A program made the translations under genes and the position numbers. Below the pieces are notes generated by a model that did not search any database, was not told the DNA's origin, and saw nothing but the letters and a program-made list of their open reading frames with translations. A stretch of DNA of 62,412 nucleotides, the filler included, from Dugesia japonica (taxonomy: Eukaryota), in NCBI GenBank assembly GCA_001938525.1. It is 4 parts of 4 records of this genome, joined end to end, with 100 filler letters (N's around TTAATTAATTAA, not from the genome) between each part and the next. Parts side by side here need not be neighbours in the genome. Positions count along the whole stretch, not along the records: positions 17,748 to 30,718 come from MQRL01580461.1; 3 more parts are not named here. One strand, 5' to 3'. Shown here piece after piece: positions 6,953 through 51,960 of this stretch (position 1 is the stretch's first letter; each line of letters begins with the position of its first letter).

Positions 6953-7124
6953 CCAACTAAATACACAGGAATATTTAAAAAACAGTAACGTATTGCATCA
7001 TATTACCTAATATGATGCAATTTTTAAATTGCCAAATAAATACATTAGGATTATGTTTCGTTACATCACTAATCCTGGGGGGTACTACATGTGTGCTGTT
7101 CTTTACTGCTACTATCTACCTACT
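6953..7124. mobile_element. Polinton-like terminus, same family as 30819-31160
   Basis: Shares ccaactaaatacacaggaa and atgtgtgctgttctttactg with the 31 kb copy; ends ctactatctacctACT. Confidence 0.6.
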
Positions 7125-13510: not shown

Positions 13511-13944
13511 TGTGACTATTAGGGGTTGGGTTACATACCCTACATTAAGAAAACTTTCTTCTGTGGACAACATTTATTTTCAAAAACAGTTGTTGATTAA
13601 TAAATAATTGAATAAAAATTCTATCTACAAAATTAAAATAATATTACAAAATATTATATCAAGATGTTAAAAATGTTTAATCTAAAAAATAATTATACAA
13701 AAATACTGTTCTTTATACAATTTTTAATTAATAAAAAAATCTATAAACCATACGTATTGATTTTTACCTAAGATGAATAAATTTCCTAAATAATACTTAA
13801 AAATTTAACTCCGTTTTTTAAAAAATCCGCCACAAATATTATTTAAACAAAAGTTTATAAAACTTCTCAATACACAAATAAAGCTTCTATCAATAATATA
13901 CTCATAAAAAATAAAAACATTTAAGAAAGATACATTTCTTCACA
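13511..13944 (-). repeat. 3' LTR of Gypsy element 1 (~434 bp)
   Basis: On minus strand begins TGTGA right after purine tract AAAAGCGGGGA and ends TCACA. Confidence 0.75.
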
Positions 13945-16900
13945 TCCCCGCTTTTAAGAATTTTTTAAGTTTTTCGACATTCCTTGTGAGTTTTTCCCCG
14001 TCTTGATCAACTAACACATATTTCCTGTCATGAACCTTCTCTATTATCTTGGAAGGGCCTTCATATCTATTTTTCGCTTTATCTCTCGCTTCAACCTCAA
14101 CCAAGACTTCTTCTCCCACCTCGAATTTCCTCCTTGTAAGAAACTTGTTGGAATTCTGTATTTCTAATTTCCTTGAATAGTCTTCTTTGTTATTTGACTG
14201 CCATCTTTCTCGACTAATCTGCCAACCAAAAACCATTTCTGTTGGACTCACTTGTGTTGTTTTTTGTTTAGTTGCATTTATTGCAAAACTCAATTTCTGG
14301 CAATAATTCCGCCCAATCTGATGTCCCCTATCTTGCATGGTGGCATTCATTAAGTCTCGCACTGTCCGGAACTGTCGTTCAATCTGACCATTAGTTTTGT
14401 GATGGTACGGACTAGCCAAATGCCAGACAATCTTTAACCTTTTTGTGAAATCCTTCATTTCCCTTGCTTCAAAAACTCTTCCACAATCCGATCTAACTTC
14501 TCTATGACATCCAAATCTCAATATCCATTCTGTCCACATATTCTCCCAAATTGTCGGTTTATCTTGTCTTCCCAACGCTATCAGTCTCACATATTTGGTA
14601 CATTGATCAATCATGCCCAGAATATATTTCTTTCTTCCTTTTGTTTCTTTNAAAGTTCCGCAAATATCAACAAAAATCACCTCAAACGGTTCAAAATTTT
14701 CCGACCAAACCGTAGCTTCTTTAACTCCCACCGTATTAGTTTTCGCTTTTTGACACTATATACAAGTGTGCACCGATTCTCTCGTCCTTTCTCTCAAAGG
14801 TTCTCCAGCATTTCTCGCACATATGTAGTCCTCCGTCTTTTCAGCTCCTGCATGACATAGAAATCTGTGAATCTCCCAAATTTGTTTATTTAACTCTTTC
14901 GCTGTTATCCACATTTTCATTTCATTTCCAAGAGTTACTCTTGCATAATTAATCTCAGTTTTAACCCCTAAAACACAGTTTTGAGTCTGCAACTACCTCG
15001 TCTTGGGCTTCTCTGTTTTTGCGTCCGCATGTTCTATCTGACATTGTGCACATTTTTTACAATTTCATCTGCTGAGTGTATCTATATTTCAACTTGATAA
15101 CCAGACTACTTAAAAAATTAAACCACGTTTGGAATTGGCTAGTAATAGGTTTCTTTGTACTTGACATAAACTTAATTGCTTTGTGATCCGTTTTCAGGGT
15201 GAAACGTTTAACATAGAGATAGTGTTTAAAATGTAATCAAAAAAATAAACTGCTAGCAATTCTTTCCTAGTTGTACAATAACCCTTCTTATGATTAGACA
15301 TTGCGTGTGAATCGTACGCAATCACCCTTTCTTTCCCATATTCGTCTTTTTGTGCCAACACTGCGCCAACCGTGCTAAAGCTTGCGCCCGTGTCTAAGAT
15401 GAATTCTCTCCGTAAATCTGGGAACCTCAACACTGGTGTTGTGGTTAGTGCTGTTTTCAATCCTTTGAAAATCTCCGACAACTCTGCAGACCAAACCAAT
15501 TTTGTGTTTCCCTGACCCCTGCATAATTGTTCCAGTTTTCTAGCCTTCATCGCATAATCTTTAATAAACTTTCTGTAGAAGTTGCTTATGGCAAGAAAAC
15601 TACGTAGTTTCTTCACACATTTTGTCTCTCCAAAATATTTGATTGCTTCTACTTTTATTGGATCTGTTTGAATTCCTCTCTCACTTATTATGTGTCCTAA
15701 ATATTTTATCTCCCGTTTCATAAAAGAGCATTTTTACGGATTGATTCTCAGACTTGCTTCCAAATTTCAGTCTAAAACCTTTTCTATAATCTTATAATGT
15801 TCCTCCCTTTACTTTGAAAACACCAATATGTCATCCAAGTATACCATTGCTCCTCGTATTCCTCTTATTACTTTAATCATCATCTCCTGAAAAGTTCCAG
15901 GAGCTGTCGCTATTCCAAATGGCATCCGGTTAAAACAGTACTGTCCCTGCTTTCTGGAGAACGCCGTCTTCTCTTGAGAGTTCTTGTCCAATTCTACCTG
16001 GTAATACGCATTGCCTAGGTGTATCAAACTAAAATTGGTTGTCTCACTCAATTTAGCAAACATTTCCTCAATATTTGTCATTGGGAATGCTTTTCTTTCT
16101 GTGATCTCGTTCAACCGTCTAAAATCCAGACATAATCTTATGTCTTTTTTCTCCTTAATCCACACACATAACAAAGGTGTGTTCCATGATGAATTACACC
16201 TTCAAATAATTTCATACTCGAACAGATTCTTAATTGCATNATCTATCTTATCTTCGAGATTCATCGGCTGTCTATATGGTTTTACATTAATAGGTCCACC
16301 TTTTATAACTTTTTTATGTTTGATTAAGTAAGTCCTGCCAACATCCCATTTATCCGTCATGAACACCTCCCTTCTCATTTTGCATATCTTTTTTAAACGA
16401 TTATCACCTTCTTATTTTATACTAGCACTCGCTCTCTGCCAGCGTTCGTCTTTATTAATCTGTGTACCAAAGGTTGCCTCAAAGTTACAGATATAACTTT
16501 TCCCTTAGCCTTTTTGTCGTTCTTCGTCGTTTTGGCCTTATTGAAATCCAAAAATATTTAAAAATTTTATTTCCTAATCATATCTGGCAGTACTCGACTT
16601 TCCATTTTGAAAACCATTAACTCCATCCTACCACATATCGTCACATTCAATCTCACTTTTCCTATCGTTTCCAACATGCTGTCGTTAGCACAGCGTAATT
16701 TTAAATCACATTCTTTCAATTGTTTACTTCCAAGTTTTTTCCAACTGTCCACACTCAATACATTAATTCCAGCTCCCGTATCCAGTAGACAGTGAATCCA
16801 CTTTCCTTCAACCTGAACACAAATACTCGGTCTACCCTGAAATTTATTATATTCTATTACCACTTGTTGACATGTTTCCAACACATTTACTGACTCCACA

Positions 16901-17647
16901 TTACCCACCTCTTTAAATAAGTCTCTGCATATGAATCTGAAAACTTTCTCTCCTACCTCATCCGCGTTCTCCTATCTCTCCATACCTCGAAGATATTCGG
17001 TAAAACTACGTTTTAATATATGGCTCCGACTAACTCACCTACTATAGGAGCCCTTGCCTTTGGGAATCTAGATTGATTGACTAGTCTAGTATCTTTAATC
17101 ACATTTGCAAAACTCATAACATTATCTGAATCCCCATTGACTTTTACTTTATCTAATAGAGTGAGTGTCTCTTTGATCTCTTCTACTTTCTGAACTTTAC
17201 GCAGTTCCACTTCTTCCTCAACCCTTTTATTTCCTCACACAGTACCAAGAGTTTTGTTGTTAACATTTTTCTTGTGAACTCTTTATTTAAGAATAACCTG
17301 TCCACAAGCTCTTTTACTTTTTCAATATACATATCAATATCTTCTTCTCGTCTCCTATATTCCATCATTTCTCTCACATATTTTAATATGCCCCTCTCTT
17401 TACTAAAAGCTCTACGCAACCGCCTTAGGAAACCTTCTGCTTTTCCTAACGTTTCGACAAATTTTCCCAGCAGATATTTTTCTATCATGCCGGTCACTAA
17501 TCTTTCTTGCTCTCTTTTTAGTTATTCCCTTGACTTCAAAGTATAAGTCACATTTTCTTATAAATTTTTCGACATCATCATGTCTTTCAAATACTTCGGG
17601 CATTAACCGGTCCGTTATGTAGTCCGTATTGACCGCTGCCATCATAT
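13511..17647 (-). mobile_element. Ty3/Gypsy LTR retrotransposon 1 (gag-PR-RT-RNaseH-INT, degenerate; 5' end cut by spacer)
   Basis: LLDTGA protease, RLCLDFRRLN/YLDD RT, FILDTGAS/TTRKELLA RNase H, SDCG/PYHHKTNGQIER integrase in Gypsy order; frameshifts. Confidence 0.95.
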
Positions 17648-18237: not shown

Positions 18238-19310
18238 AGTAGGGGGATAATGGCGCACTGGCACAATTTGGCAATGGGCCAAAATTATAGCACAATTTTT
18301 AAAAGCAGTTATCGCGGGACACCCTCCCCCAAGTGTCCCGCTCGAAAACACATTACGATTGTTCTATGATTTTTGTGCTATGATTTTTCGGTTAGTTTTT
18401 TTTTCTAAGATTTTTGGAATCAAAATTATTTTGATCGGATCAGTTTTTTTTATCCTGAAGGTGCGTGTGTGTATTTTAAAATTTTAAAATTTGTGTGCTT
18501 GGTTTGCTAAGGGAGATTTAAAAAAGTAGGTCAAGTTGAGTTTGTGTGTTTATGTGAGTGTGTGTGAAAGAAGGGATTTGGACTCGAGGAATAGCTGGAG
18601 ATCTTGGAAATAATTTTTTTACGATTTGATTGTGGATGGACAAAATTCGATCTATATATTGTCTAAAGAACTTATGGGGTGTAATGAATGAATTTTCCTA
18701 GAAGGGTAGTGGCGCACTGGCACAATTTTATGAGTAATATTGGGTGATTTTTTTTGGGAGGCTGTAGGTTTGTATGTAGTTGATGGTATTGGTTGGTTGA
18801 CGGGTTGTGGAAAAGATAATGTAATGGAGAAGATTTTGTGTGTCGAATGTGCTTTGATATTTTATTATAAGGGCTTCAATTTGTTTGGTTAAAATTTTTA
18901 AGTAGTTTAAGTGTGCAAAACGTTTTCGCGAGAAGGAGAGTGGTATGGGTGTAAAGAGAGTTAATTATCGGATATTATGATATTTATTTGACGTTTTTCT
19001 GCCGGGCAGATGTGACTAAATAATGTTTTGGAAGTTTTATATTTTTTACCCACGTAACCTATTATTAAGGTACCCACCAATTTATTTATGAGTGAGATGA
19101 GTTATTACTCACAACCTTGAGTAAATACCCTATTTTTACCAACGTAATGTGTTACCGCCATCCCTACCCTTTACTATTATTGAGTTGGGTAATTTTTATT
19201 ACCTATCTACTCACTATCTATATAAGTGGGTAGCTCGAAAACATGTTATGAGTTATTACCCACAACCTTGAGTAAATATACAGTATATTTGGCAGGAAAT
19301 TCAATTATTT
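18238..19310 (+). repeat. Left TIR of element A (~1.07 kb)
   Basis: Colinear reverse-complement similarity to 23384-24556. Confidence 0.9.
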
Positions 19311-19355
19311 CAAAAATCTGCTAATGATATGCAACTAGCAATCAAGTCAATGTTT

Positions 19356-19850
19356 AAACCAGATTTACACCAAAAAAAGACAATGCTGACATTTTGGTGG
19401 TCTATACCTGGAGTCATGCATTTTTCTTAGTTAGAAGAAGGTCAAACGTTTACCTCAGACAAATACTGTTCTGAAATTGAATTATTGTACAAACCTTTAT
19501 GCATTAAACAGCCTTTATGTGTCAATAGGAAAGGAATCATCCTCTTGCATTATAGTACCCAACTACATGTGGCAAAGAAGACGTCGACAGACTTAAAAAT
19601 TGAAACTTTGCCACATCCACCATATTTGCCCGACTTATCTCCGACAGATTATCATTTTTATAAGCATTTTGATAATTGTTTGGTAACAAAATCATTGCTG
19701 ATCGGAAGGATGTCAAAATGGCCATATCCAAAATCATAGACTCCAGAGAAAAAGATTTATTTGCTAAAAGTATTTTGAAACTAGTTTCTAGATGGCAAAA
19801 AGGTGTAGAATCTGATGGTGACTATTTTACTTAAATAAAATTTGATTTAT
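19356..19850 (+). mobile_element. Mariner transposase 3' fragment within element A
   Basis: KPDLHQKKTMLTFWWS, LPHPPYLPDLSPTDYHFY, SRWQKGVESDGDYF. Confidence 0.9.
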
Positions 19851-19876
19851 TGGACTTTTATTGATTTTGTTATCTT

Positions 19877-20269
19877 TTACGTAATCGGACATTTCATATG
19901 TGACAATCTAATAGTATCAAAAACTAATTTAATATCCGTACTTTCATATTCACCACTAAAATATGAAAGTCTCTTTAAACTTTCCTGATTTTCAAATAAT
20001 AAACTGTGGTATGCAATATCACTAGTAAAGACTAAAACATTTTTTTTCGATAATTGAATTATTGTTAATAATTCATAATCAATCCTAGATTGACTGTAAA
20101 TCGGCATGGCTGAATATACAAAGGTGAAATTCATCATGGCAACTTCCTATCTACCATCCATGTAAATTGGATTTTGAAGCTCAACAATGTAATTACTAGC
20201 AGTATTATTTGGAAAAAAAAGATGACTACTAGTACTAAGTAAAAGCGTATAGAAATTATTTGATTTCAT
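19877..20269 (-). pseudogene. Polinton minor capsid (penton-like) N-terminal remnant
   Basis: MKSNNFYTLLLSTSSHLFFPNNTASNYIVELQNPIYMDGR*EVAM matches FYxTLPSxSS..FPxNTxSxF..LxxPI.L.G.WEV. Confidence 0.7.
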
Positions 20270-21313
20270 CTGAATTTCCTTCCTGATTGACTATTTGTGT
20301 TGGTAATATCCAACCTGGTTTTTCGTATCCATACCACTTTACATAGTATTGTTTATTCTTTACTGATCCATTTGATTTGATTATTGTTTCTATTTTATCT
20401 ATCTCTGGTGGTGGAATGACTTATAATTCTTGCTCATAGAATTTTCCTTGCATTATATTGTCATCATAATCTTTAATAACATACATGACCGGATTTTGTT
20501 TCATGTTGACTTTTGTTATTTGAAACCTTTTATCACTCCAATTACTATTGAAATTCTTGATAAAAGGTGAAGCTGAAATTTCTGAGATTCTCACATGATC
20601 GCCAACTTTATACTTTGGTTTTTTATTTGCTTTTGAATGTTCACGCGATAACCATAATTTTAATTGATTATTTGCACTTACATTAACTGATCTTGCTACA
20701 TTTAATCCCTTATGGCGAGAATGATTGTAACTATGAATAAGTTTCGGTATAATATTTATCCAAGTCTTAATATCAACATGTACAAAGTATTTTTTCAATG
20801 CATCTCTCAATGTGTGATTAAATCTCTCTACATGTGCAGCTTTATAGTGAGAGAATACACTATAATGGTTTATGGATAGATGAAGTTGTTTTACCTTAGT
20901 ATTATAAAATTCCTTATCTAAATCCGTTTGTAAATTATGTGATGTCCATTTTTAAACATTGACTTGATTGCTGGTTGCATATCATTAGCAGATTTTGATT
21001 TAACAGGAACAGCTCTTGCAAATCTACTGAATACATCGATACATGTCAAAATATACTTGTAACCTTTATTAATTTTCAAATACGGAATAATCTCCATTAG
21101 ATCCATTTGCCATAAATCATCAATACCATATGTTTTATATGTTCTTGTTGGAAATCTTTTCCACATCGGCTTGTTCAAACTGTACGCTAGCTGTAGACAT
21201 AACCACCTTTTCATCTTTCTTTTCTTTTTTTGAGTTGCTTTCATCAATTTTTCTACTCCTCGAAAAACTGCTGAGTTTATTAGATCCGTCCAAATTGTCT
21301 TTAGTTTCCCCAT
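20256..21313 (-). pseudogene. Polinton retroviral-like integrase with C-terminal chromodomain-like region
   Basis: GIDDLWQMDL, YKYILTCIDVFSRFA, KAAHVERFNHTL, KPKYKVGDHVRIS, GKFYEQEL, KQYYVKWYGY. Confidence 0.92.
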
Positions 21314-21405
21314 TACAACAATTCAATGCAAATTTTGAGTCAAAAGTAGGTAATGATTGCAATTCCCCCATTATTTATTAATATATTAGTCAAAAGCGTA
21401 AATTG

Positions 21406-21728
21406 ATTATTTGAAATGAGTTAAGCCTAACGCGGCCAATACAATTGATAACAATGCTGTTGTTTTTCCACAACCTTGATTATTTCATATTGCTTTCTTC
21501 ATCAATCTCCTATATTTTGTATTTACAAGCGATAGTAAGATTTTTATGTTTTTTCAACGTTTCCTTTTTAGCGTTTCTCAAATTTACATTACTAAGAACA
21601 ATAATTATAATAATCTCAAGTAAATCATCCATGAAATATGGTGGAAATGAGTCCAAAATTCTCATTCTCATTAATTTTGAGGATTTAATCAAAGCAGTAA
21701 AAAACGGAATACTTCTTTCTAATTTCAT
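21406..21728 (-). pseudogene. Small conserved Polinton basic protein with hydrophobic C-terminal helix
   Basis: MKLERSIPFFTALIKSSK...DDLLEIII.IVLSNVNL...LKKHK...TALLSIVLAALG; homologue at 48582. Confidence 0.65.
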
Positions 21729-21759
21729 TTTTATTTCAATAACAAACAAATACTAGTTA

Positions 21760-22003
21760 ATTGTTTATAATGATATCTATTGTCCATTCATTAATCCCAT
21801 TTTTTCCAGTACTTTTTGCAAGTTTTTTTAAACTTATTCAATTGTTTTTTCTTATTTCCATACGTTTTCTTATGAGATTGTTTCTTATGGGATTTTTTCT
21901 TATTAGGTTGTTTCGTCTATTTTTTCAAAACCAGCCTTTTCCGGTGTTTAACAACATCACCATCAGTAACTGAATCAACTACAATTTTCTTAAACTTTGC
22001 CAT
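21760..22003 (-). pseudogene. Lys-rich small Polinton protein
   Basis: MAKFKKIVVD...KKQLNKFKK; homologue MAKFTKVIVD...NQLNKFKK at 48309. Confidence 0.65.
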
Positions 22004-22019
22004 TTTAAATAATATTATA

Positions 22020-22211
22020 AAAAGTACTTGTTTTGTTTAAATACTGTGATACCATTAAGGTTCAATATATCTGTTCTCACCCTACAATCATGTGGACATT
22101 GTTGTGTAAAGTCAAGAAATAGATATCCATGTGGTTTTCTGCTGTATCTTGAAATGTTGGGCTACTAGGCCAAACAATTTGATAGACTGCATCATTTCTA
22201 AATTTTTCCAT
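22020..22211 (-). pseudogene. Packaging ATPase remnant with large internal deletion
   Basis: MEKFRNDAVYQIVWPS joined almost directly to GYLFLDFTQQCPHDCRVRTDI; both ends match 47669-48284. Confidence 0.8.
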
Positions 22212-23383
22212 CTTGCGTTTTCTTTATTAATTCATAATTTTTTACATTGTTTATAATTGAAAGTTAATGCAGTATGTATGTAATATGTATGCAGCACTAG
22301 TGCAACACACATACACTGAAAATCATGTGACTAAGAATTTTTTATTAAACAATAAAATTCAGATGCTACACAGATGCAACACATAGGCAGCATACATGCA
22401 TTAAAAATCACATGCCTGTTAATTTTTAATAAATGCAATAGGTATGCAACTGAGATGCAACTGAGATGCAACTAAGATGCAACACAGATTCAACACACTT
22501 AAACATTAAAAATCACGTGCCTATGATTTTTAGACTGCCCATCTCATGCAAAATATAGAGTCTCCACATGTAAAATATCAAGACTGCCTCATCTCATATA
22601 TAAATATAAAGTCTTTTCAAAAGAATTTTAATTAAATTAAAAATTTCTCAAAAAATATATTTTTTTAAATTTCCCGCCGAAAATAATTTTTTAAATCTCC
22701 CTCCAAAAAATATTTTATTCAAAATTTTTATTCATGCAACACAAAAGCTGCATTCATGCAACACACAATCATTTTAGCTAAAATTTACTTTAGACAACCT
22801 TTAGACCGATTTTGATAGCAAACTCAAATATAATTTCAAAACCCGAAAATTATCACCCGTCACCCATTCGGTCGCGATTTTCATTAGAAAATTACATTTT
22901 GACGCACACACAAGCACCGTAACATAGGAATTACTAAACTTTTTTTAAGTATAACCTGTGTCCCATGTTCCTTTTTCATTCAAAGCAAAAATCATCTAAA
23001 TCCAAGAAATTGCAATACTGTTACTAAATAACTGAAATCTGAAAACACGTCACTGTAACCAACAAGAACATTTTTGTAAAAAATTATCTGTCATTTGATA
23101 CAGACTTAAAAACTCTATTCAAATACAACATTGAAACCCAATAAAAATAAAAAAATAATAAAAAAGATTAAAAAAAGATTAAGAAAAAAGATAATAAAAG
23201 ACAGAGGACATAAAAGAAGAAGAAATTTTTTTTTATATTTCCCGCCAAAACAAATTTGAAAATAAAATTCAAAAATTTTTTTTTTGAATTTTCCGCTAAA
23301 TTTATTTGTTAAGTAAAACAAAAAACAGAGTCGTGTGGTTAATAGGACAACATGCTATCACTGTTTTCTTTAAAATAAACAAA

Positions 23384-24556
23384 AATAATTGAATTTCCTG
23401 TCAAATATACTATATGGGTATTTACTCAAAGGTTGTTTGTCATAACTCATAACATGTTTTCGAGGTACCCACTTATATAGATAGTAAGTTACACAACTCA
23501 ATCATAGTAAATGGTAGGGATGGTGGTAACACATAATGAGTAGAAAAATATTACTCTACACGTGAGTAAATTAACCATGACCTTGAGTAAATTACACAAC
23601 ACAGTGAGTAAGTTTTAACCACTCCCTTATATAGATAGTGATTAGGTAGGAAATAAAAATTACCCAACTCAATTAAAGTAAAGGGTAGGGATGGCGGTAA
23701 CACATTACTCAAGGTTGTGGGTAATAACTCCACTCACTCAAATATAAATTGGTGGATATTTCGATAATATGTTAAGTGAGTAAAAAAGAATAAAGATTTC
23801 AAAACCTTATTATGTCACACCCGCCTGGCAGAAAAATTTCAAATAAATATCAAAAAATCTGATAATTAATTCTCTTTCCACCCTTACCACTCTGCCCCTC
23901 CGGAAAACTTTTTAAACACACTTATACTACTTACAAATATTGACAAATCAAATTGAAGCTCTTAATTTCAGAAATTAAATCATAATTGACATCGAAAAAA
24001 TTTTCCATCTCATTACCTTTCAAACAATCCATCTCCCAACAAAATCCAACTACACCCTAAAAACCTACAGCCTCCCTAAAAACATCCCACGATAAATCAT
24101 ACGACTGTTCTGTGGCACCACTACCCTTCTATTAAAATCCATCCATCCCACCCCATAAGTCTTTTAGACAATATATAGACCGAATTTTTGTCCAATAACA
24201 ACCAAATCTTAAAAACTTTAGAAAAAATATTTGGAAGATCTCCAGCTCTTCCTTCTTGTTTTTTCCTTCTTTCACACACACACTCACACATACACACAAA
24301 CTCAACTTCACCTACTTTTTAAAAACCTTTTTAGCAACCGAAAAATATAAATTTTAAAAATTAAAATTACATACACTCTTTCGGGGTCAAAAAAACTGAT
24401 CCTATCAAAAGTTTTTTTACCCCAAAAAATCTTAGAAAAAAAGAGTCACGGTAATTATGTCACAATCGTTATGTGTTTCTTGGGATAACTGCTTTAAAAC
24501 TGTGACTGAATTTTGGCCCATTGCTAAATTGTGAAAATGCGTCACTATCCCTTACT
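23384..24556 (-). repeat. Right TIR of element A (~1.17 kb)
   Basis: Reverse complement of left TIR, with an extra internal repeat unit near 23550-23740. Confidence 0.9.
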
Positions 24557-25610
24557 GTCGTTCTCTAAATTGTGGTGCTCATCATAAATTCTATTTCTAG
24601 TAAAATATCTGCCCAATCCTGGATTTTCTTATCCTATAAATTAATATGAATTGTATCTCTTATAGTTCGAAATTTTCTTTTAATTATTCCATAACTACTA
24701 TGATGATATTGACTTGAGTATTGGATTTCACAATTAAATTCCTTAGCTAATTGTTGGAAAAGATTTGATTAAAATGATTTCCTACGATCTGTATGTATAA
24801 TTCTCGGTATACCATATTTCAAAATATAATTATTTTTTAATATTTTTTCATCTTGATGTAAAACTGCATTGAAAGAAATAAGTCTACTGAATTTATTAAT
24901 TATAGCTAAAACCTTTTGTTTTTCATTTCAATATGAATGATTTCAAAGATGTCATAAACTGGAATACTAATAATTGACAATTTTTATTACTCTGAGTAAC
25001 CTCTTTTACCATTTCTTCTAGACCTTCCCTATCATAATTTTCTCTTATATGAGCTGCCTTTTATTCGAAATCCTATATGACACAATGATTAGCGTTCACT
25101 TCTTACAAATAATGTTCTGCATTCTAAAAGAATTTAAACTTTACTAGTATTTGTGATCATAATACCATTTAAAAACTTTTTAAAAATTTTGAATTCATTT
25201 CACTGTTTTTTAAGTTACCTGTTATAATATTAATATTAAGATTTTTGTTTTCATGTTCCATGTTTTCGTATTTTCATGATTTATTTGACATTGAATAAAC
25301 GTTTTGCAATTATTTCTAGACGTTGTATCAGCATTTTAATGATATTCCCCTTTTCTGCATTCCATAATCATATTCAAACTACTTAAAAATCGATCCATGT
25401 CTAAAATTGTAGAGTAATCGGTTTTTTTATTAATCATAAAAAATATGGCTGTTTGATCAGTTCGAAGTTTAAATCTTTCCACCTAAAAATAGTGTTTATA
25501 ATGTTTCGCAAAATAATATATTGCTAGAAGATCTTTTCTGGTTGTACAATAACTTAATTCATGCTTACTCATTGCTTTGAATCCATAATCTATAACTCGT
25601 TCATTAAGTT
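24557..25610 (-). mobile_element. Gypsy element 2, RNase H-integrase part
   Basis: YCTTRKDLLAIYYFAKHYKHYF, FKLRTDQTA, FEMVYREL, EIEFMMSTT continuing into 18237 once the insert and one TSD are removed. Confidence 0.85.
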
Positions 25611-25737
25611 GATATATTTTGATATATTTTTATATTTTAACACTTATTTAATTTGTTTTAATGCACTATAATTACATATATTACAATTTTATTTTTCATT
25701 TATCAATAATTAGCGGTTTTATATGAAAATTTTACAG

Positions 25738-25857
25738 GAGATGATGCAAATGAAAACGATAAAATTTTTACTAAAGTCCTTACTGTTCGAGATTTACAAG
25801 ACGTTGGATTTTACAATTTTATGGCCAATGTTGAAATAATAAATAAAAAAACTAACG
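25738..25857 (+). CDS. Host exon, CLCA-like (calcium-activated chloride channel regulator family), C-terminal region
   Basis: ag|..|gt, 120 nt, phase 1/1: DDANENDKIFTKVLTVRDLQDVGFYNF, cf. CLCA ADxxKxDGVYSRYF...GRY. Confidence 0.65.
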
Positions 25858-26369
25858 GTATTTGTATTGTTTGCATTCAATGATATTTATTTATATAGAT
25901 TGCATTTCCTTATATTTTATGTTACGGATAAATTACGCATTCATTTAATGTATACATGAATTTATTAATGCTTTCTCTAGATATTGCACACATTTTCACC
26001 AAAGCTTTAGTTACACTTGAGAGAACTCAATACTGCAACAAGTTAAATATAAATTGTTAAAAATAAAAATTCATTTATTATTTTTGGATAGCAAGACATA
26101 GAATATAAAGCAAATAAAACTAAATAAATTGATTCAATAACAATTATTGAAAAAATTGTCTAGATACAACAAGACGACGCTTAATGCGGAGTACACATTC
26201 CAATAAGTTCTAGTGCTAAATGAAACAGCGTTAAACGAGGTTATCTTAATACACAATTAATGGGGATAAATTAAATAGAACAGGATATAAGACAATATTT
26301 TAGAGGCTCATGGATTTCAAAAATACTGAAACAACGTTAAACTGGGTATTGTTAAGCGGGGTTTTACTG

Positions 26370-27366
26370 TATTATACCTATTATTTATTGCAATATAAAA
26401 TTATTTTTAATCAACCAATAAAAATATAAAATCAAATAAAAAATTACCAATTAAATTAGTGAGGTCATGATGACAAGTCTACTTACTTAAACTAGAGAGG
26501 CACTTAGAATTACAACGTATATTTTATTGCACACAGTAACATTTATTTAAATTTGTATTATTTAAGCCTCTTCCAGAATCTTGATTGTTGGCAATCAAAT
26601 TTAATAGAAATTATTAATCAGCAACGTCTCGACTAAAATTAGTTTCTCTGGGTAAATGCTGAATTGTAATCTTAAATAATGTATTTCCATAGTCACATTT
26701 TCTGTCTGAATTTGAAAAAACCTTCAAGGGTATAGGTACTATTATTGCTAGATTTGATTGAGCATCTTCTTTATCTCGATGAATATCCTGTTGAATTATG
26801 TTTCATCTGAGAAGATAGCATTATCCTAAAATGAACAAAAACCAAATTATGACAGGCAATAAAGACTTGTAAGAAAAATGGATAAGAAAATTAAAACGAC
26901 CATAAAACAAGGTGGTGTCACTGTTGGTATTCTTAAAAATTGTCTTAAAAAGTCTACAAAATAAGATAAATCGTAAAACGTTTAAATTAGGCCAAGCCAG
27001 CAATCCAAAGACACAGCAAGATGCAGCTAATAATACTTTGAAACCAATCAAAATAACTATACTCAAATAGCCTTCTCAGAATTCCGGTTTAAATCCAATC
27101 GAAATATTTGAGATTATATATGAAAGAAAATTGCTGAAAGACTTTTAAAGAAAGAGGGTATGGCAAATTTATTTTGAAATTATAGGAAGAAAAAAAATCA
27201 ATTGATTTATGAAAATCAGTTGTTAAATCAATAGCACAATTTTAGATGTTTTTCGAAAACATGGTGGTTTTATTAACTATTGATTTTAATTCACAGATTT
27301 TTTGAGTGGTAAAAAATAAACATTTTATTTAGAACAAAGTTTACAAGCTTATACAATAAAAAGTAT
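26370..27366 (+). mobile_element. Tc1-like remnant
   Basis: K*PSQNSGLNPIEI resembles Tc1 WPSQSPDLNPIE; lies in the CLCA-like intron. Confidence 0.55.
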
Positions 27367-27564
27367 AATAATAATACGGTTTGATTACGCTTTCATATGT
27401 TTAATAAGAATTGTTAAGTGATTTTTATTTGGAATACTATACATATATAACACATAATAAATAATACCTCAAATCAATTTTAATATAATAAGGAAATTAT
27501 TTTTAAATATTTGATGTGTTCATATTTGAATCATTTGCATACTGATATGGTGTTCTTTGTTTAG

Positions 27565-27744
27565 AATCAATANCAAGAACTGTAGAACTTGGCAGTTTGA
27601 GAATAAAGGACAAACAACAACAAAAAATTGTAGACAAAATTCCTCCTTCAAAAATTGACAGTTTACAAATAAAAAATGAGCCAAATACAAAAATATTAAA
27701 AATTATATTTACTGCTCCTGGAAATGATGGAATGAATGGAAATA
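27565..27744 (+). CDS. Host exon, CLCA-like
   Basis: ag|..|gtaag, 180 nt, in frame with the previous exon: RTVELGSL...DKIPPSKIDSL...IIFTAPGNDGMNG, cf. DxFPPxxITDL...WTAPGDD. Confidence 0.75.
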
Positions 27745-27929
27745 GTAAGTTTATTTGAACGAATTGATGAAATTTAGGAATTTTATTTTTTTAATTTTGA
27801 ACTATTTAATTTTACAAAAAGCAATTTGGAAATTAGAAAGATACGAGAGTGATTTCAAACGTACATAAAATGAAAAAATAAAACAAATTTATTTGTAAAT
27901 TTGTATTTATTTTTCTATACAATGATTAA

Positions 27930-28350: not shown

Positions 28351-28489
28351 GCAAACTTTTCAAATCAATATCGTTAATTCAACACTTTAAAATTTAATAC
28401 CTGAAATTAAATTTTTTTTAATTGAATATAGGCATTGGATCACCCCCACTTGACAAAGAACTTTTATAACAAAGAGCATAAGTCATAAG

Positions 28490-28850
28490 TATGACTCATC
28501 GATGACTAGAACAAAGACAATGACTCATCTTTTTTATAGATCATGACTCATCGATTTAGTAGAACATGACTCATCGTTTTTATTCAAATTTTTTATATGT
28601 CAGTGATCCAGAATCCACGATTCTGATTGGTTGAAAATATAAATGATGACTCATCGATTTAGTAGAACATGATTCATCAATTTAGTAGAACATGACTCAT
28701 CGATTTAGTAGAACTTGACTCATCGATTTAGTAGAACATGGTTCATCGTTTCTCTGGATCACCCCCCCTAACAAAGAAAAATTTTCTAGATCATGACTCA
28801 TACATTTTCACGAACTTGACTCATACATTTTCACTATCATGACTCATGAA
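28490..28850. promoter_or_regulatory. 23-bp tandem array carrying TGACTCA (AP-1/TRE) sites
   Basis: Unit ATGACTCATCGATTTAGTAGAAC; 10 exact TGACTCA and 2 one/two-base variants; CTGATTGG (CCAAT box) at ~28623. Confidence 0.7.
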
Positions 28851-29007
28851 ATTTTTTTTTATTTTTTTTATTTATTTTTTTATCTTTTATTTAAATTTTT
28901 TTTAAAAATTTTTTTAAACAAATTTTTTTTTAGAATTAACACTTTTTTTTAAGGTTAACATTTATTTAAGAACAAAGTACAACTTATTAAAATAAAAAAA
29001 ATCAAAT

Positions 29008-29309
29008 TCATGGAATTCGTTCTAAAATAATGTCCCTCATTACCCAGTATGGACAGGGATTGGTTAAACACATTGATAATATTTCAAATTCGCTTTCGAA
29101 AAGGTCTAAAACTCTCTTGATATCAATCAAATCTTTTTCCAGAACGTAATGCCAATATTCTTCTTTTTCCAACAATTTGGATTTTCTTTCGCATTCTCGA
29201 TGCATTTCATTTATTATTCTTCTTGCAAGATCTGGGAAAAAGAATAAATAAATAATAATAATAAAAATTTACCTCTTTCGGATATTTCTTTTCCATTTCT
29301 TAAAAGCAT
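29008..29309 (-). CDS. Two-exon 86-aa microprotein beginning MLLRNGK
   Basis: Exons 29309-29273 and 29231-29008, 41-nt GT-AG intron, open frame MLLRNGKEISERDLARRIINEMHRECERK...LERIP*. Confidence 0.7.
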
Positions 29310-30005
29310 TTGAAATTATATGTGAACAGTAAAATAAATTGTTTTATCTACAAATTTGTTGTTGTAACACAACCTAACCCAATTAATTCAATCAATCACC
29401 AATATTTATTTGCTTTGTTTAACTGGCTACTGAATTGCATTTGAATTGCACTTATATTGTTTATACAAAGAAAAACCAATCAAAACATGATAATAATCAA
29501 ANNNNNNNNNNNNNNNNNNNNNNNNNNNNNNNNNNNNNNNNNNNNNNNNNNNNNNNNNNNNNNNNNNNNNNNNAAAGCAAAGATATTTAATAAATTATCA
29601 CTATTTTAACATGCAACAAACTTTCGGTTTAACAAAAGATAATGTTAGGACATTCGTGGTAGATTACTGAAAACCTTCAGAATTTCATGGAATTAAAATG
29701 AAATTTCTCTAGAGCTCAATTGTATATATGTTTCAAGTAATTTTATTTATTTTATTTTATTATTTAATATTTTCATTTAGGAACCTGTGTAGATACAACG
29801 ATCTGGAAAATTCGTGACATATTGTAAATGTTGTTATTGTAATAAATGTTATTATTTATAATTGTTTTGTAAAAAGTTAAATATCTATAAAAATTGATAA
29901 ACCCTCAAGTTAAATTAAATAAAAATTAAACCATATTAAATAAAAACTTTATGACAAATGACTAACAAAATAACTATATAAAAAAACAAATTTTAACAAT
30001 AAAAT

Positions 30006-30307
30006 TTATTGATTTACACTAATTATTAAGTCTTCCAAAAGTGTAACTCTACATCTGTAACTCTCGCAATGAGCATTAATATAAATCTTCTTGTAATATT
30101 GAACAAGAATAAACTCGATTTCTTCTTTTTTGAGCACGATTTTCCGTCGGAATAGAATTATCGCAGTAATATCTAAAATAAAAATTATAAGAATGAATAA
30201 TTTAAAAATTAAATATTACTTTTTTCATGAATAAGGTCCTCCTGACCATCAAAATCGGCCGATTCTACACCTGTTCTTCTGAATTTTTCAACACGGATCG
30301 AATTCAT
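30006..30307 (-). CDS. Two-exon 84-aa protein of unknown function
   Basis: Exons 30307-30220 and 30172-30006, 47-nt GT-AG intron, open frame MNSIRVEKFRRTGVESADFDGQEDLIHEKNITAIILFRRK...CESYRCRVTLLEDLIISVNQ*. Confidence 0.65.
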
Positions 30308-30475
30308 TTTTAAAATTAACAAATGATTAAAATGAAATATGTAATGTGTTATATGCAATTCTCTGTTTTACACAAATCGACCAATTAAAATCGTTTAATG
30401 AAAAAACAAGTAATTATCAAACAACGAAGTGCCTTGTTATACTTACATTCATATTGCATGATTCATGTTGTGAAA

Positions 30476-30718
30476 TTAATCAATAAAATTATACAAATCA
30501 GAAATTATATTATCCACATATCCTTAATAGTGTAAATCTTTTATACCGAGTATTACAATTTTGCGTGATGAAAATACTTTTACACATACAGGATCATACT
30601 TTGTAAGACGTAATGCTGAAAATAATTCTGGTTCAAACCAACATTTTGTTATTATTTTTTATAACTTGTCCCAAATTGATTACAAGTATTAATGATTGCA
30701 AACGAATATCTTTAATAT
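30476..30718 (-). pseudogene. TBP-like gene, C-terminal repeat (copy 2; 5' cut by spacer)
   Basis: IKDIRLQSLILVINLGQVI / KCWFEPELFSALRLTKYDPVCVKVFSSRKIVILGIK. Confidence 0.85.
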
Positions 30719-30818
30719 NNNNNNNNNNNNNNNNNNNNNNNNNNNNNNNNNNNNNNNNNNNNTTAATTAATTAANNNNNNNNNNNNNNNNNNNNNNNNNN
30801 NNNNNNNNNNNNNNNNNN
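30719..30818. other. Artificial assembly spacer
   Basis: 44 N + TTAATTAATTAA + 44 N. Confidence 0.95.
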
Positions 30819-31160: not shown

Positions 31161-31190
31161 TCATTGGACTGTGAATCAGTCATTTCCTCA

Positions 31191-31482
31191 CCAATAATAT
31201 ATGTTTATTTGTACTTGTGTCTGGCATTCATCAGAAATGTCATCATTTGTCAGCATATCAATTATTTTCTCATCAATAATGACATCATTAGTTTGTGCAT
31301 CAATAATTTTTTCGGTAATAATATCATCATTTGGTTGAGTATCGTTCATGTCTTCCTTGGATGTTGCATATATTCCATCAATATCTATATCATTTTCTGG
31401 AAAATCATCTACTATTAAATAATTATTTAGATTAATATTAGTTATTATTACCTTGAACCGATGAAGTTATATGTTCAACCAT
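31191..31482 (-). pseudogene. Two-exon acidic-repeat small gene, truncated or decayed at the 3' end
   Basis: MVEHITSSVQ|VDDFPENDIDIDG...DMNDTQPNDDIITEKIIDAQTNDVIIDEKIID with ~40-nt GT-AG intron. Confidence 0.55.
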
Positions 31483-41299: not shown

Positions 41300-41837
41300 T
41301 TAACCAATCATTGACAATTAAAGAATCAGGAACCTGTTATATCTTCAAATTTTTTCATATTTAAATTGGATCTGACATTTTTCATTTATGCATTTATCTG
41401 CATTAAATTTGTTTTTTGGAATAATTTTTGAATAATCTTTTGAATGAGAATTTCGATGTTTTGCAAACTATGCTGGAATCTTTGTCGATTTTCCTTTTCT
41501 TGGCGGATGGATAATCAAATGAAGTATATGCATATACTTCATTTATCACAGTTTCTTCTGTATCTGAAATAATTTGATTGTGAAAAAGTAAAATAATTTT
41601 ACCTCTTAAACTAGTGTCATCGAAAAAGCTCGGACTAGGCTCTAGATTTGCCATGTTTTCTAAACATTGAATATTCTGGTGACAAGAATTTTCTTCAGTT
41701 GAACAGAGTTCTTTATTAATATAAACTTGGAGACCGTCCTCATCTTCGGATATATATTCCCATCCATCATCTAGTATCGTTGAAATATTTAATAAATATT
41801 TTAATTAAATTAATAAATATTTAATACCTGAGTCATT
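41300..41837 (-). pseudogene. Acidic N-terminal small gene with NLS-like PSAKKRKID, probably a Polinton accessory gene
   Basis: DDGWEYISEDEDGLQ...MANLEPSPSFF...PSAKKRKIDK; ~1 kb inside the 42888 terminus. Confidence 0.45.
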
Positions 41838-42769
41838 TTCAAAAAATATAATGAAAAAGTATGAATTAAGTACTATATCAAATTCAATAGAAGATACACA
41901 TGCAAGGTTTTTTTAAAAAATACGTGAATTTAATAAATAATTCATTAGTTTCCTTAAAGTATGTATTATTGCATTTCAATGATTTGATTAAATTAATTTA
42001 TGAACTAAATGTATATTTATTGTATTTTATTTATTTATTAATAAAATCTGTATGTATTTATATGTCTAAATGAAATCTTTGATTATTTGAATGAAATTAA
42101 AGTATATTAATAGTAGANNNNNNNNNNNNNNNNNNNNNNNATAATGTATTTATGAAATTGATGCGTGTTTCAAATTGATGCAGTTAAACAAACTAATTAT
42201 TAATTACATTCTAAATTTTAAATTATTAGTGACATATATTGGAATTATTAATTAAAATTTTTTAAATTCATTGTTTGCATACAATGATAACGTTTCAAAT
42301 TCATTTTTAAGAAAAAATATTTTACAAAAGGATCAAATTGTAATCAAAGATGAAATATTACTAGAAGATAACATAACCGTTTTTGGTAATACATTTTGAT
42401 TATTAATATTTTAGTTATTACTTATTTCTTTTAAGATGATATCAAACTAGTACTGGAAGAGATAATTCCAGAGTTTGAAGAGAAATCGAAATCATGGAAA
42501 CAGAATTAGTATTTAAAAAACAAAAATGTTTTCCAGTTGTATATTCTCGATAAAGAGGATAGATAATTGATCTTTTACAATTTTTACAATTTTAATGATG
42601 AATTCATGTAAGTTGGATCAGTTATATCATAAGGGAGAAAATTATTTTGGAAAGATTTCCATGATTGTGTATGTGGTTTTAAATTATAGTTTGTTATTAA
42701 ATTAATGTTAGTTTAAATAGTATTTATCTTTATTATTGTATTTATTAATTCAAAAAAAAATTTCTTGTC

Positions 42770-42888
42770 GGGGGGGGGTGAGTCATGATCTATGAAAACG
42801 ATGAATCATGATCTATAAAATCATTGTCTTTGTTTTAAATGTTCTTTGTCTAAGGGGGGTTGATCTCGTGCGCTACTATCTACATACT
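42770..42888. mobile_element. Polinton-like terminus, family of arm D
   Basis: Ends gtgcgctactatctacatACT; contains TGAGTCA and gacaaagaac/acaaagacaatga blocks shared with 28437-28530. Confidence 0.65.
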
Positions 42889-45659: not shown

Positions 45660-46767
45660 TTTTAACAGGATCAAACAATCGATAGCAAAACGGATGAAAA
45701 AGAAGAAAATTACATTTGGAATATTCATGCGAAATTCGAAAGAAAAATTAAAAAAGAGAGCGATTGACAAAAGCCTTAAATATTTTGAAGATTAAAGAGG
45801 ATCAACGGTTATTGAAAATAATTCGAAGTAAAGAAGATACTTTTATGGCATATAAATTGGATGCAGGATGCACAGGACAAGACACGAAATAATCACAAGT
45901 AATGAACCAATCAATCTAAAACCGTACAAACAACCAATGAATTTAGACTCTAAAATTGAAGGAGCTATCCAAAACCTTTTCGAGAATAATATTATCCGGA
46001 AATGCAACTCTCCATGGAATACCCCATTGATCTGTGTTTGGAAAAAGAAAAAGAAGAACAAAAGAATATGTTTGGATTTCAGACAATTGAATGCAGTAAC
46101 GAAAAGACAAGCCTTTCCAATACCTAATGTCGATAAAATGCTGGACAAGTTAAATGGAGCCAAATATTTCAGTTCAATAGATTTGGGAAACGCATACTAT
46201 CAGGTAGAGCTCGAAGAAGAATCTCAAGAAAAAACGGCGTTTTCAACGAAGCATGGCCAATATTGTTTTAATAGAATGTCATTTGGAATCGCAGCAGCAC
46301 CAGGTACATTTCAGGAGATGATGACAAAAGTGGTTGGCGGAATCAGTGGAGCCATGGTTTATCTTGATGATATTCTGATATTTACGAACAATAAAGATCA
46401 ATACTATGAAGTCATTGAAAAAGTATTGATGAAAATAATGAAGGTTGGTCTAAGAATTAATCCAGAGAAGTGTGAGTTTCTTCAAAGCGAAATCAAGTTT
46501 CTTGGANNNNNNNNNNNNNNNNNNNNNNNNNNNNNNNNNNNNNNNNNNNNNNNNNNNNNNNNNNNNNNNNNNNNNNNNNNNNNNNNNNNNNNNNNNNNAA
46601 GTTTCTTGGGAATTTGTAATTATTACAGGAAGTTTATAAAAAACTACGCAAGAAAGTCAAAGATATTAGAGCAGTTGTGTAGCGGATCAAGCCACAAGAA
46701 ATTAGAATGGACAGATGAAATAAACGATACTTTTGAGGGATATGAGAAAATAATTATTAATAAATAA
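45660..46767 (+). mobile_element. Gypsy element 3, RT fragment (related to element 1)
   Basis: SPWNTPL, RICLDFRQLN, IDLGNAYYQV, YLDD, FLGICNYYRKFI. Confidence 0.95.
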
Positions 46768-47184
46768 TTTCACCCAATAGGAATTGGGATATCTAAATAT
46801 TAATATTTAAATACTTGTATTTCATAATTATCATAAAATTGTTCTTCCAAAATATCTTTAACAATTTCTAGAAATCAATTAGTTTATTAATTAAAGTAAT
46901 TAAAAAAAATAAGCTTTTACTCTATCGATTTCATGAACATGATATTTATCTTTTATAGGTATCGTATATATACCGCATTCATTATGTTCTTAAAATATAT
47001 CATCATCACTAAAAACTGTATCCATATCTTTGTATTCAATAGTGTAACTCATAATTATCAATTTAATTTATGATCATTTTATTTATATATTTCTATAATT
47101 TAAATTTGTATGAGTCATCTTCTTTGTTCACATTTTGCCCTGTTCATGCTTCATGCATCTATTGATCTTGTCTTCTGCATTGAT

Positions 47185-47595
47185 TTAGTTTTTCATAATT
47201 AAATTATGCAAATCAGATATCATAACATCGACTTGAGGTTGTTTTCGATTTTAGACTGGATTGAATTTTATAAGTCGTAACCCAGGAAATAATTTAGATT
47301 CATACATGCATTTAGTTCTTCTCGCTAAATCATATAAATTGATTGAATATCTCAAATTTATAGCGACTGTAATCGACTGTAGTTGAATATCTTCGATATC
47401 ATATTGTAAATGTTTTCTTTTCAAGGGTCTTTCACATCCCATGATTCTAAATCTTCCGGATTTGAAGAATACTAAAGTATATTTTCCAGTTTTGTTGAAA
47501 ACATGCGATTGTCTGCCAACTGGAAAATTTATTTGTCTTGTAACCTCTTGTGAAACTTTGCCTCTGTAATTAATATTTGTAATTATAATTATGTC
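47185..47595 (-). pseudogene. TBP-like gene (copy 1; last beta-hairpin deleted, no clear ATG)
   Basis: ITNINYRG...YTLVFFKSGRFRIMGC...IQLQSITVAINLRYSINLYDLA...MYESKLFPGLRLIKFNPV; cf. TBP LIFSSGKMVCTGA, IQNMVGSCDVKFPIRLEGL, YEPELFPGL. Confidence 0.85.
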
Positions 47596-47668
47596 AATAA
47601 ATTTTTAAAAAGTTAATATATACATATACATAAACAATAATTTAATTGATACAATAAAACAAACAATA

Positions 47669-48284
47669 ATGGAATTAAGAAATGATGCTGTTTATCAAAT
47701 TGTCGGCCCAAGTAGAAGTGGAAAAACTCTTTTTGTGTGTAAATTATTCAAATCAAAATTATTCAAATCAAAATTCAACAAAATATATTGGCATATAGGA
47801 GCTGATGAGGAATATGTATTAACTCAATCCGAATTCTGTGATATAAAATAAAAATTATAAACGATTTTGATGAGAATTGAAGCAAGAGATTAACTAAAGG
47901 TGATGTGATTGTTGTTGATGATTTATACCAGGAAGCAAACAAGGAAAAGAACGTTAACAATTTATTCACCAAGATATCAAGACATTGTGATGTGACTGTA
48001 TTATTTATTACTCAGAATCTATTCCATCAAGGAGGTGGACATAGAACTCGCAATTTAAATGTACAATACTTGGTTCTATTTAAAACTTCAAGAGATTAAA
48101 GAGTTGTTGATTTTCTTGACAAGTATATCCAAACAATAGACAATTTCTTTTGGACTCTTTCAAAGATGCTACAGTAAATCCGAAGGGATATCTTTTTATA
48201 GACTTTACACAACGATTTCCAGATGAACTTAGAGTGAGAACTGATATTTTTAATCCAATCGGTGTTACCGTATATAAACAATAA
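47669..48284 (+). pseudogene. FtsK/A32-like packaging ATPase
   Basis: Walker A GPSRSGKT, Walker B IVVDD, LFTKISRH, FITQNLF, GYLFIDF, LRVRTDIF. Confidence 0.93.
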
Positions 48285-48308
48285 ACGTAATTTCTTATTT
48301 TATTACAA

Positions 48309-48536
48309 ATGGCGAAATTTACTAAAGTTATAGTTGATCAACTCAAGAATAAAATGATTAAACACGATAAAAATCCAAAAGATATTAAAACAATAAAAAC
48401 GACAACAAAGAAGTCGTCAGAGATTGTTATTAAAAAGAAGTCAACATAGAAGAAACAATCAAAAAACCAGTTGAACAAGTTCAAAAAATTATCAAAAAGC
48501 TTTGGAAAGAAACTAACAGATGCAAATGGAAAATAG
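48309..48536 (+). pseudogene. Lys-rich small Polinton protein
   Basis: Homologue of 21760-22003 in the same position after the ATPase. Confidence 0.65.
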
Positions 48537-48581
48537 ATTAAGTTATAAACAAATATCTAAGTTTTATATTTAATAAAAATT

Positions 48582-48780
48582 ATGAAATTTCAACAAAGTC
48601 TTCGGTATTTTAATATATTACTCAAGGCTTCTAAAGAGTCTAGAGCAAAGATGATGCAATCATTTCCATCATTCGTTGTTGATTATTTACTAGGGATTAT
48701 TGTAAACATAGTGCGTGGTTATGTAGTTATAAGCAAAGTTAGAAAATAAGCATTGGAAAAACATATTAAGTCATTGCATA
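48582..48780 (+). pseudogene. Small conserved Polinton basic protein, 3' truncated
   Basis: MKFQQSLRYFNILLKASKESRAKMMQSFPSFVVDYLLGIIVNIVRG; homologue of 21406-21728. Confidence 0.65.
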
Positions 48781-48789
48781 CCGACTACA

Positions 48790-51178: not shown

Positions 51179-51399
51179 AATGTATAGGTAATGAATTTAT
51201 TTGAACCTATTAAAAATGATTTTATTATATACAAATCAAACGAAGAATCTAAAAGAATTTACGTATTCCAACTAGATTTTATTAAACGGACATATATTGA
51301 ACTGACATTATTAACTGTTTGTTATTATACATAATAAATTTTCTCAAATGAGATTAGTGTCTTTATTTATAATTTTATTTTAATATTGTGAGCGATTAA

Positions 51400-51960
51400 T
51401 GCTAGTGTTAATATTACCATAAAAAATAAATATTAATAGGCCTGTGAACATCTAATGGCTGGAGCATTAAATAGTTTGTTCAGGGATCATCTAATGTCGG
51501 TTACAACCAAGAGTTCGTACCCATAGACATCTCATAGTTTGTACCCTTTAACAACTAATGTTACCAACCAACATCTCATTGTATGAACACAGAAACATCC
51601 ATTAGTATAGAACTTTAGCAATTAATGTTAATATTGCCCGGGGAATATTTAATGTTAATGTTGCCCGGGGGAATATTTTATGTTAATATTGTCGGGGAAA
51701 ATCACATTCCATAAATTCTTTTAATTTAAACAAACATAAGCTTTTCAAAAACTTTTCCATAAAGATACTCGAAATTAATAATTTCATTAAATATAAGCAA
51801 ATAATCATTTATTTCCATAAATTTAAACAAAGAATCATTAAAGCACTCAATTTAAACAAAACAAATAATTTGAACTCATTTCAACAAAAAAACCATAAAA
51901 AACAGTATGTGGCAGTGCGCTGCTGGGGAAAAAAGTATTTGCTGCAGTGCGCTACTATCT
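51400..51960. repeat. Right TIR region of element B with aatattgcccgggg repeats
   Basis: Three aatrttgyccgggg-like units at 51628-51700; terminal gcgctactatCT. Confidence 0.65.

Follow-up and report, generated by a model that had tools for sequence, protein, structure and literature searches.

A decayed Polinton end in Dugesia japonica, probably the early region of a mini-TBP-carrying element

The E1 and E4 regions of adenoviruses place small spliced genes beside a genome terminus with bZIP-like sites. Among mobile elements, the closest described systems are the Polintons or Mavericks and the adintoviruses. AGT ends and 6-bp duplications are marks of Mavericks, whose intact vertebrate members are reported as intronless and whose virions have not been observed, according to the available portion of the source (PMC8097293). 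The Oncoid of adintoviruses is defined by LxCxE, CR1 and paired CxxC motifs (PMC8502044). In the accessible text of the adintovirus paper and its preprint, the sole mention of TBP is a label in the legend of a figure on MELD viruses, and the available part of the supplement holds an 'SSDBP' label and no TBP hit (PMC8502044); both genes may thus be drawn in the figures of that paper. The available text of a further account (10.1101/2023.08.22.554363) mentions neither TBP nor promoters, and the freely accessible literature searched, in part available as excerpts, held no account of an early/late promoter split. In a herpesvirus, the KSHV protein ORF24 turns on late genes through a modified TATA box, as described in the part of the source at hand (PMC6541308).

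The locus compared here with these systems occupies positions 28431-30718 of the window, by which the whole analysed stretch of 62,412 nucleotides from Dugesia japonica is meant. The window is AT-rich eukaryotic DNA (GC 14-38% per kb) in which four contigs are joined by linkers of the form N44-TTAATTAATTAA-N44 at 17648, 30719 and 45087, and the locus makes up the final 2.3 kb of contig 2. The original prediction described it as a candidate host-control arm, analogous to adenovirus E1/E4, and the five parts it named are present in the order it gave (array, MLLRNGK gene, plus-strand ORF, 84-aa gene, TBP), as is the gap of 72 N at 29502-29573. The features needed below are as follows.

18238-24556, minus strand: element A, a closed Polinton remnant with AGT..ACT ends, inverted ends of about 1.1 kb and a perfect 6-bp target-site duplication
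28431-28850, plus strand: subterminal array of repeats at a Polinton end, with 13 units built around ATGACTCAT at a 23-bp period
29008-29309, minus strand: MLLRNGK gene, 86 aa, with a 41-nt GT-AG intron (29232-29272) and no internal stop
29310-29610, no strand: divergent intergenic region with three CCAAT/ATTGG words, one YATAAAC (29465, minus strand) and the 72-N gap
29611-29861, plus strand: stop-containing SSB-like remnant, N block at 29683, C block at 29786, 44-nt GT-AG intron-like segment at 29737-29780
30006-30307, minus strand: 84-aa gene with a 47-nt GT-AG intron (30173-30219) and no internal stop
30476-30718, minus strand: mini-TBP gene, 3' part, truncated by the contig end; frame change near 30655, in-frame stop at 30526
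30719-30818, no strand: contig linker at the contig end, one of the three
42270-42888, minus strand: second copy of the element end, with an AGT cap at 42888, a shorter array and a decayed MLLRNGK-family gene pointing toward the array
46790-51969, plus strand: element B, with a spliced ORF and a mini-TBP gene (minus strand), ATPase, PX-like gene and pPolB remnants (plus strand) and an AGT-capped right end at 51969

The reading favoured here, at a probability of roughly two in three, is that 28431-30718 is the decayed end of a multi-copy mini-TBP Polinton/Maverick and likely its early region. This copy is broken in both its SSB and its TBP gene and is a dead fragment.

The repeat array consists of three blocks of 23-bp period, and its 13 units lie within two mismatches of ATGACTCAT, eight of them exactly. 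TGACTCA occurs ten times in the array and seven times in the other 61,057 bases, and 0.26% of the 23-mers of the window contain an AP-1 word. The ten AP-1 words in tandem are one amplified event, and column conservation within the array is biased because the units were anchored on the core. A homologue of the array lies on contig 3 at 42779-42837, with a blastn E of 9e-11 and a local score of 69, where 1000 shuffles reached 33 at most. Since this second copy adjoins the AGT-capped end at 42888, the array at 28431-28850 is read as terminal too. The cap is not recognisable in this copy itself, where 444 of 3000 random positions score equally well; the locus has one element end only, the other being missing, and the TIR-like character predicted for the array is a candidate feature. 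Termini like that at 42888 are found at 7124, at 31160, at 51969 (behind pPolB in element B) and at both ends of element A, and the 14 letters common to the contig 3 and element B termini are weak evidence alone (8 of 1000 shuffles). An independent MITE was rejected as the source of the array, the second copy being AGT-capped and carrying the same gene. Among the 84 TBP loci described below, the array has no blastn match below E 0.03. Tandem arrays of their own lie near TBP in three of these relatives (L020:5000-5164, L013:1095-1385 and L021:17-184), that of L020 being terminal with repeated ATGACGT words of TGACG type. Single occurrences of ATGACTCAT are found at 45275, at the start of contig 4, and at 47110, just upstream of the TATA word of the element B spliced ORF.

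At the opposite end of the locus, the TBP gene announced on the minus strand is present as a TBP-like 3' part, disrupted by the frame change and the stop and cut by the linker at 30719. The fragment matches Pfam TBP (PF00352) with E 0.0018 and 18.5 bits, against a curated cut-off of 22.9, and an intact relative by tblastn with E 2e-13; the mini-TBP of element B reaches E 5.6e-7 and 29.8 bits, and intact relatives reach 57-64 bits. Word-based searches with the element B protein returned nothing, and a full HMMER search with it found a family of 81 clusters at E <=0.001, mostly of 100-200 aa. The structure model of one intact relative (P0002, alignment A2; pLDDT 96.5) shows the two-repeat TBP fold with a reduced first repeat and aligns with TBP at Z 13.5 and an rmsd of 2.4-2.6 A over 145 residues, and the second repeat matches TBP by sequence at E 3e-21. 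Mini-TBP is accordingly modelled as carrying the two-repeat saddle of cellular and archaeal TBP (PF00352; PDB 2z8u, 7egb, 1cdw), with which the likeness extends over the whole fold of the predicted structure. It differs from these proteins in being about 30 residues shorter, in its reduced first repeat, in an identity of 18-26% and in being borne by a mobile element, and the copy in the window is broken.

A metagenome scan yielded 84 mini-TBP relatives, of which the best 80, some of them near-duplicates, were used for locus counts. Polinton core genes stand beside mini-TBP in 42 of these 80 loci and in 20 of the 22 that are at least 4 kb long, several of them nearly whole elements, and three loci (L008, L057, L059) join pPolB and rve integrase with mini-TBP. 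The core genes comprise ATPase, rve integrase, pPolB, an adenovirus-type protease and capsid-sized genes, the capsid labels resting on size, position, one Pfam Capsid_N hit at E 0.007 and one 29% pairwise match. Mini-TBP thus marks a Polinton lineage. Four viral-contig loci hit by the TBP profile were set aside, as they have full-length TBPs and no Polinton gene. Loci L054-L067 form a second, more GC-rich TBP-Polinton group in which TBP lies directly before ATPase and which carries a PLA2-like gene and zinc-finger, RING or KilA-N genes. Known Polintons and adintoviruses (PMC8097293, PMC8502044, 10.1101/2023.08.22.554363, each available in part) share with this material the AGT termini, the 6-bp duplication seen in element A, the core genes of the relatives and the small accessory genes; the mini-TBP lineage differs from them by a lineage-wide TBP of 145-165 aa, two classes of promoter word and early genes with predicted introns.

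The arm had also been expected to be transcribed away from a structural arm. Such a divergent layout exists in element B and in four of the 31 loci that have an ATPase, but in 25 of them TBP lies upstream of ATPase on the same strand, with TBP behind the virion genes in one of the remainder and convergent in another; the divergent arm is therefore one layout among several and not a fixed one. Within the window, no core gene is physically linked to the fragment, and 28431-30718, cut by the contig end, lacks ATPase, protease, capsid genes, pPolB and rve integrase. Element A, which contains a mariner fragment besides its ATPase, PX-like, integrase and penton-like remains, was considered as the missing structural arm, its core genes lying 6 kb to the left of the locus, and rejected: its perfect 6-bp duplication assigns its ATPase and integrase to a closed insertion with its own ends. 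Between element A and the locus lie Ty3 remnants and pieces which we take, by their motifs and with no Pfam support, to be Tc1/mariner and CLCA; a short ORF at 27546-27755 resembles a CLCA C-terminal motif and has no Pfam match. The spliced ORF predicted downstream of TBP in element B does exist, with a predicted 53-nt intron and one internal stop. Elsewhere in the window, a remnant at 4377-7124 combines a capsid-like gene (plus strand), a pPolB end (minus strand) and an AGT terminus in the layout of L008, the terminus at 31160 is related to that at 7124, and an acidic ORF is common to 4177-4296 and 31182-31301. Ty3/gypsy-type remnants occupy 13943-17500, 24550-26400, 45868-46767 and 61574-62165, one of them abutting element B; a pPolB C-terminal remnant lies at 58641-59200, and at 61014-61232 two arms of 107 bp, 97% complementary and 5 nt apart, are either MITE-like or an assembly fold-back.

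The plus-strand ORF between the gap and the 84-aa gene had been described as a decayed, spliced, Cys-rich gene. Decay is evident from three internal stops in 29611-29861, and the 44-nt intron is predicted, but the Cys-rich protein reading of exon 2 was rejected, since its frame differs from the conserved frame of the family to which the ORF is assigned here and the C block lies outside the cysteine frame. This family is a neighbour of mini-TBP, with 21 hits in 18 of the 80 loci, all beside TBP, 20 of them upstream and one downstream and convergent; locus L032 has the convergent layout of TBP and SSB-family gene found in 28431-30718. When blocks of the family were scored across about 124,700 six-frame windows, the N block scored best at 29683 (37.8, next 27.1) and the C block at 29786 (17.9, next 16.8, a lead of 1.1 points). 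The two lie on the same strand and in the right order with about 80 codons missing between them, only the two ends having been kept, and a whole-profile HMM search did not detect the remnant. Judged by these blocks, the ORF is a putative shortened remnant of the conserved TBP-neighbour gene. An open upstream exon and a phase-0 intron of 41-46 nt precede the N block in 16 of the 21 members. The family model (pLDDT 91.5) has as its top matches phage Enc34 SSB (Z 8.4), DUF2815 (8.3), T7 gp2.5 (8.1) and ASFV CP312R (7.0), with the next at 5.8, that is, three viral SSBs and one phage-related DUF2815 protein. The match to 5odk, with an rmsd of 2.8 over 103 aligned residues, is borderline at Z 8.4, a value near the level common among unrelated models; Foldseek ranks the same SSB proteins, none with E under 0.001, and sequence searches of the Atlas and PDB gave no match. 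The modelled fold makes a gp2.5-type, OB-fold ssDNA-binding protein the likely identity of the family. It aligns with T7 gp2.5, Enc34 and ASFV CP312R over 101-112 residues (Z 7.0-8.4) and differs from them in an identity of 8-10% and in its extra upstream exon.

What argues for an early region is the distribution of two short words upstream of the genes, both chosen after the data had been seen. In the first 100 nt upstream, YATAAAC is present at 62 of 73 virion or packaging genes (ATPase, PX, penton, capsid, protease and PLA2) and at one of 60 TBP genes, and in 52 of the 62 it stands at 33-50 nt; it precedes integrase in 7 of 11 cases and pPolB in none of 4. Clustering at 70% identity leaves the contrast in place, YATAAAC marking 34 of 42 virion/packaging genes against 0 of 38 TBP genes and the initiator-like TCAYW 5 of 42 against 29 of 38; because the loci are related, p-values for these words would overstate the case. 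Canonical TATA is mildly enriched at TBP genes (24/60 against 16/73), and CCAAT shows no enrichment there (17/60 against 13/73). In the window, all five core genes with a located ATG have YATAAAC, a count that leaves out two element A positions not at an ATG. The three small genes of the locus (MLLRNGK, plus-strand ORF, 84-aa) lack YATAAAC within 100 nt and all have TCAYW, against a background of 15% of 1069 ATGs; one YATAAAC lies 156 nt upstream of the MLLRNGK gene, most of the upstream region of the plus-strand ORF falls in the N gap, and the canonical TATA pattern is found at none of the three in this copy. By their upstream words, the small genes would fall in the TBP promoter class, and the idea that the locus is an early region is supported as likely. 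The element B TBP gene has neither word, and three SSB-family genes have YATAAAC upstream.

The two remaining genes are orphans. Both are minus-strand genes, as originally predicted, are open across predicted GT-AG introns and encode 86 and 84 residues. The MLLRNGK gene has one homologue, P0085 (74% over 65 aa), which is without the first exon, and a decayed one at 42270-42665, beside the contig 3 array and in the same orientation. The latter has a DNA score of 92, where 400 random stretches of the window gave 71 or less, its last 13 residues are the best match after the MLLRNGK gene itself, and its intron of 50 nt has the same phase; a second conserved block was not recovered from it. Array and MLLRNGK-family gene occur together in both copies seen, which supports this much of the proposed arm. 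Both this copy and the SSB remnant were missed by tblastn and tblastx and revealed by reading frames, DNA alignment and block scores. A spliced-looking orphan ORF with no Pfam match lies on the minus strand at 41406-41870, divergent from the contig 3 homologue. Viral contigs held no relative of MLLRNGK exon 2, for which Atlas scores were 0.76, nor one of exon 2 of the 84-aa gene, a gene for which no homologue was found. Neither orphan has a homologue in the 84 TBP loci.

The host-control arm holds that these two orphans reprogramme the cell as adenovirus E1A/E4 do, that the MLLRNGK peptide tethers to the nucleosome acidic patch and that the array couples activation to AP-1 stress signalling. 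The terminal position and the promoter class suit it, as do the open frame of the MLLRNGK gene, its 74% homologue and stranded reads from relatives. The M-x-L-R spacing at the MLLRNGK N-terminus moreover resembles the M6/L8/R9 contacts of LANA with the acidic patch, as given in the part of the source available (PMC9040877). The proposed chromatin peptide comes down, however, to a four-position resemblance of which the decayed contig 3 copy keeps only LR, and just one of 11,529 ATGs in the 80 related loci starts such a motif. Of the Oncoid motifs of adintoviruses, LxCxE is absent from seven exon readings of the genes in 28431-30718 and CR1 from every exon reading, two CxxC occur only in the plus-strand ORF frame that is not the family's, and the orphans gave no Pfam, PHROG or Atlas lead. 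With neither LxCxE nor CR1, and with LANA-like spacing not kept in the second copy, host control is unsupported; the genes that could be identified would instead serve the element's own replication (SSB-like fold) and transcription (TBP fold). Nothing found at 28431-30718 shows control of the host, and a host-control arm is considered unlikely.

It is also quite unlikely that the locus is a chimeric pile, whether with distinct insertions to the left and right of the gap or with a right half that is non-autonomous and was amplified on its own. The segment 28975-30718 (the part taken into the alignment, which did not include the array at 28431-28850) acts as a repeat family, with 3058 and 2907 aligned contigs in two public DNA runs, 247 and 192 of them at least 99% alike. 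Summed contig depth, which is not copy number, varies 1000-fold, from about 100 over exon 2 of the 84-aa gene, an exon rare among related copies, to more than 400,000 on the TBP side, where it is highest. No record among the listed pieces of the public runs bridges the gap, the contig is full of nested remnants, and beyond its MLLRNGK homologue the second copy has another gene, all as a pile would have it. Against this, contigs reach into the gap from both flanks with similar depth on each, both sides are Polinton-type and of one promoter class, and L032 repeats the convergent order of TBP and SSB-family gene. The introns of the locus are sequence predictions, for which the public-run alignment, with repeats skipped at two introns, listed no splice junctions. 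In RNA, a quarter of run X22 gave 474 aligned reads, none at 99% and four at 95-99% alike, with first mates mostly on the plus strand (up to 86 against 6 over MLLRNGK exon 2, 52 against 13 over TBP, 15 against 7 over the plus-strand ORF), and run X21 gave 38 reads. Assuming the usual library, the X22 reads mean minus-strand RNA from relatives, antisense to the plus-strand ORF, and are not evidence for this copy.

Very unlikely, finally, is a reading in which the array acts as a signal for replication or integration, or as a p53-family element, with mini-TBP a decoy or origin binder and YATAAAC a word for host TBP. In its favour, origins lie in terminal arrays, YATAAAC resembles a canonical TATA box, and 6 of the 13 units agree with a p53 half-site at all but one position. 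None agrees with it perfectly, however, against eight exact copies of ATGACTCAT, which makes the p53 reading of the array the weaker one by sequence; a single ATGACTCAT stands just upstream of the TATA word of the element B spliced ORF, and YATAAAC is avoided by the TBP gene.

On the favoured reading, of a decayed early region of a mini-TBP Polinton, intact relatives would work in two steps. Host RNA polymerase II with host factors would transcribe the small spliced genes, SSB and mini-TBP from initiator-type promoters, perhaps with help from a bZIP protein bound to the ATGACTCAT array. The SSB, to go by its fold, would cover the strand displaced as pPolB carries out protein-primed replication from the termini, and mini-TBP would bind YATAAAC some 33-50 nt upstream of where the ATPase, PX, capsid and protease genes begin to be translated and recruit host Pol II, the result being an early-to-late cascade akin to that of the viral TBP mimics of herpesviruses. 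The full form of this proposal is more tentative and is given somewhat less than an even chance: that the spliced early genes (SSB, a chromatin-tethering peptide, mini-TBP) are switched on by host-type promoters and by terminal arrays of bZIP sites, and that mini-TBP needs no partner to divert host Pol II to YATAAAC, a late promoter of the element's own that every virion gene carries. This would be a two-stage viral programme across a widespread lineage and a one-protein version of the herpesvirus late complex. As with the TATT late promoters of KSHV ORF24, the model pairs a TBP-like viral factor with an altered TATA word before virion genes, but ORF24 is large and acts in a six-protein complex, according to the portion of the source available (PMC6541308), whereas mini-TBP loci are without identified partner genes. 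Fold matches of mini-TBP to BcRF1/UL87 are weak (E 0.006-0.011). The locus shares with adenovirus E1/E4 small genes with predicted introns near a terminus with bZIP-like sites and differs in being without E1A motifs and in a gene order that is not fixed; the genes identified, as replication and late-transcription factors, would be closer in role to the E2 DBP.

The interest of these results is carried by the lineage-wide promoter split, the spliced SSB-like gene and mini-TBP, the locus itself being a dead fragment. A likely SSB and conserved predicted introns are now named in these Polintons. The split supplies a short word and a small protein for experiments and lets genes of unknown function be sorted into early and late by sequence; coupled to an element-encoded TBP, it would offer a direct handle on whether Polintons behave as viruses.
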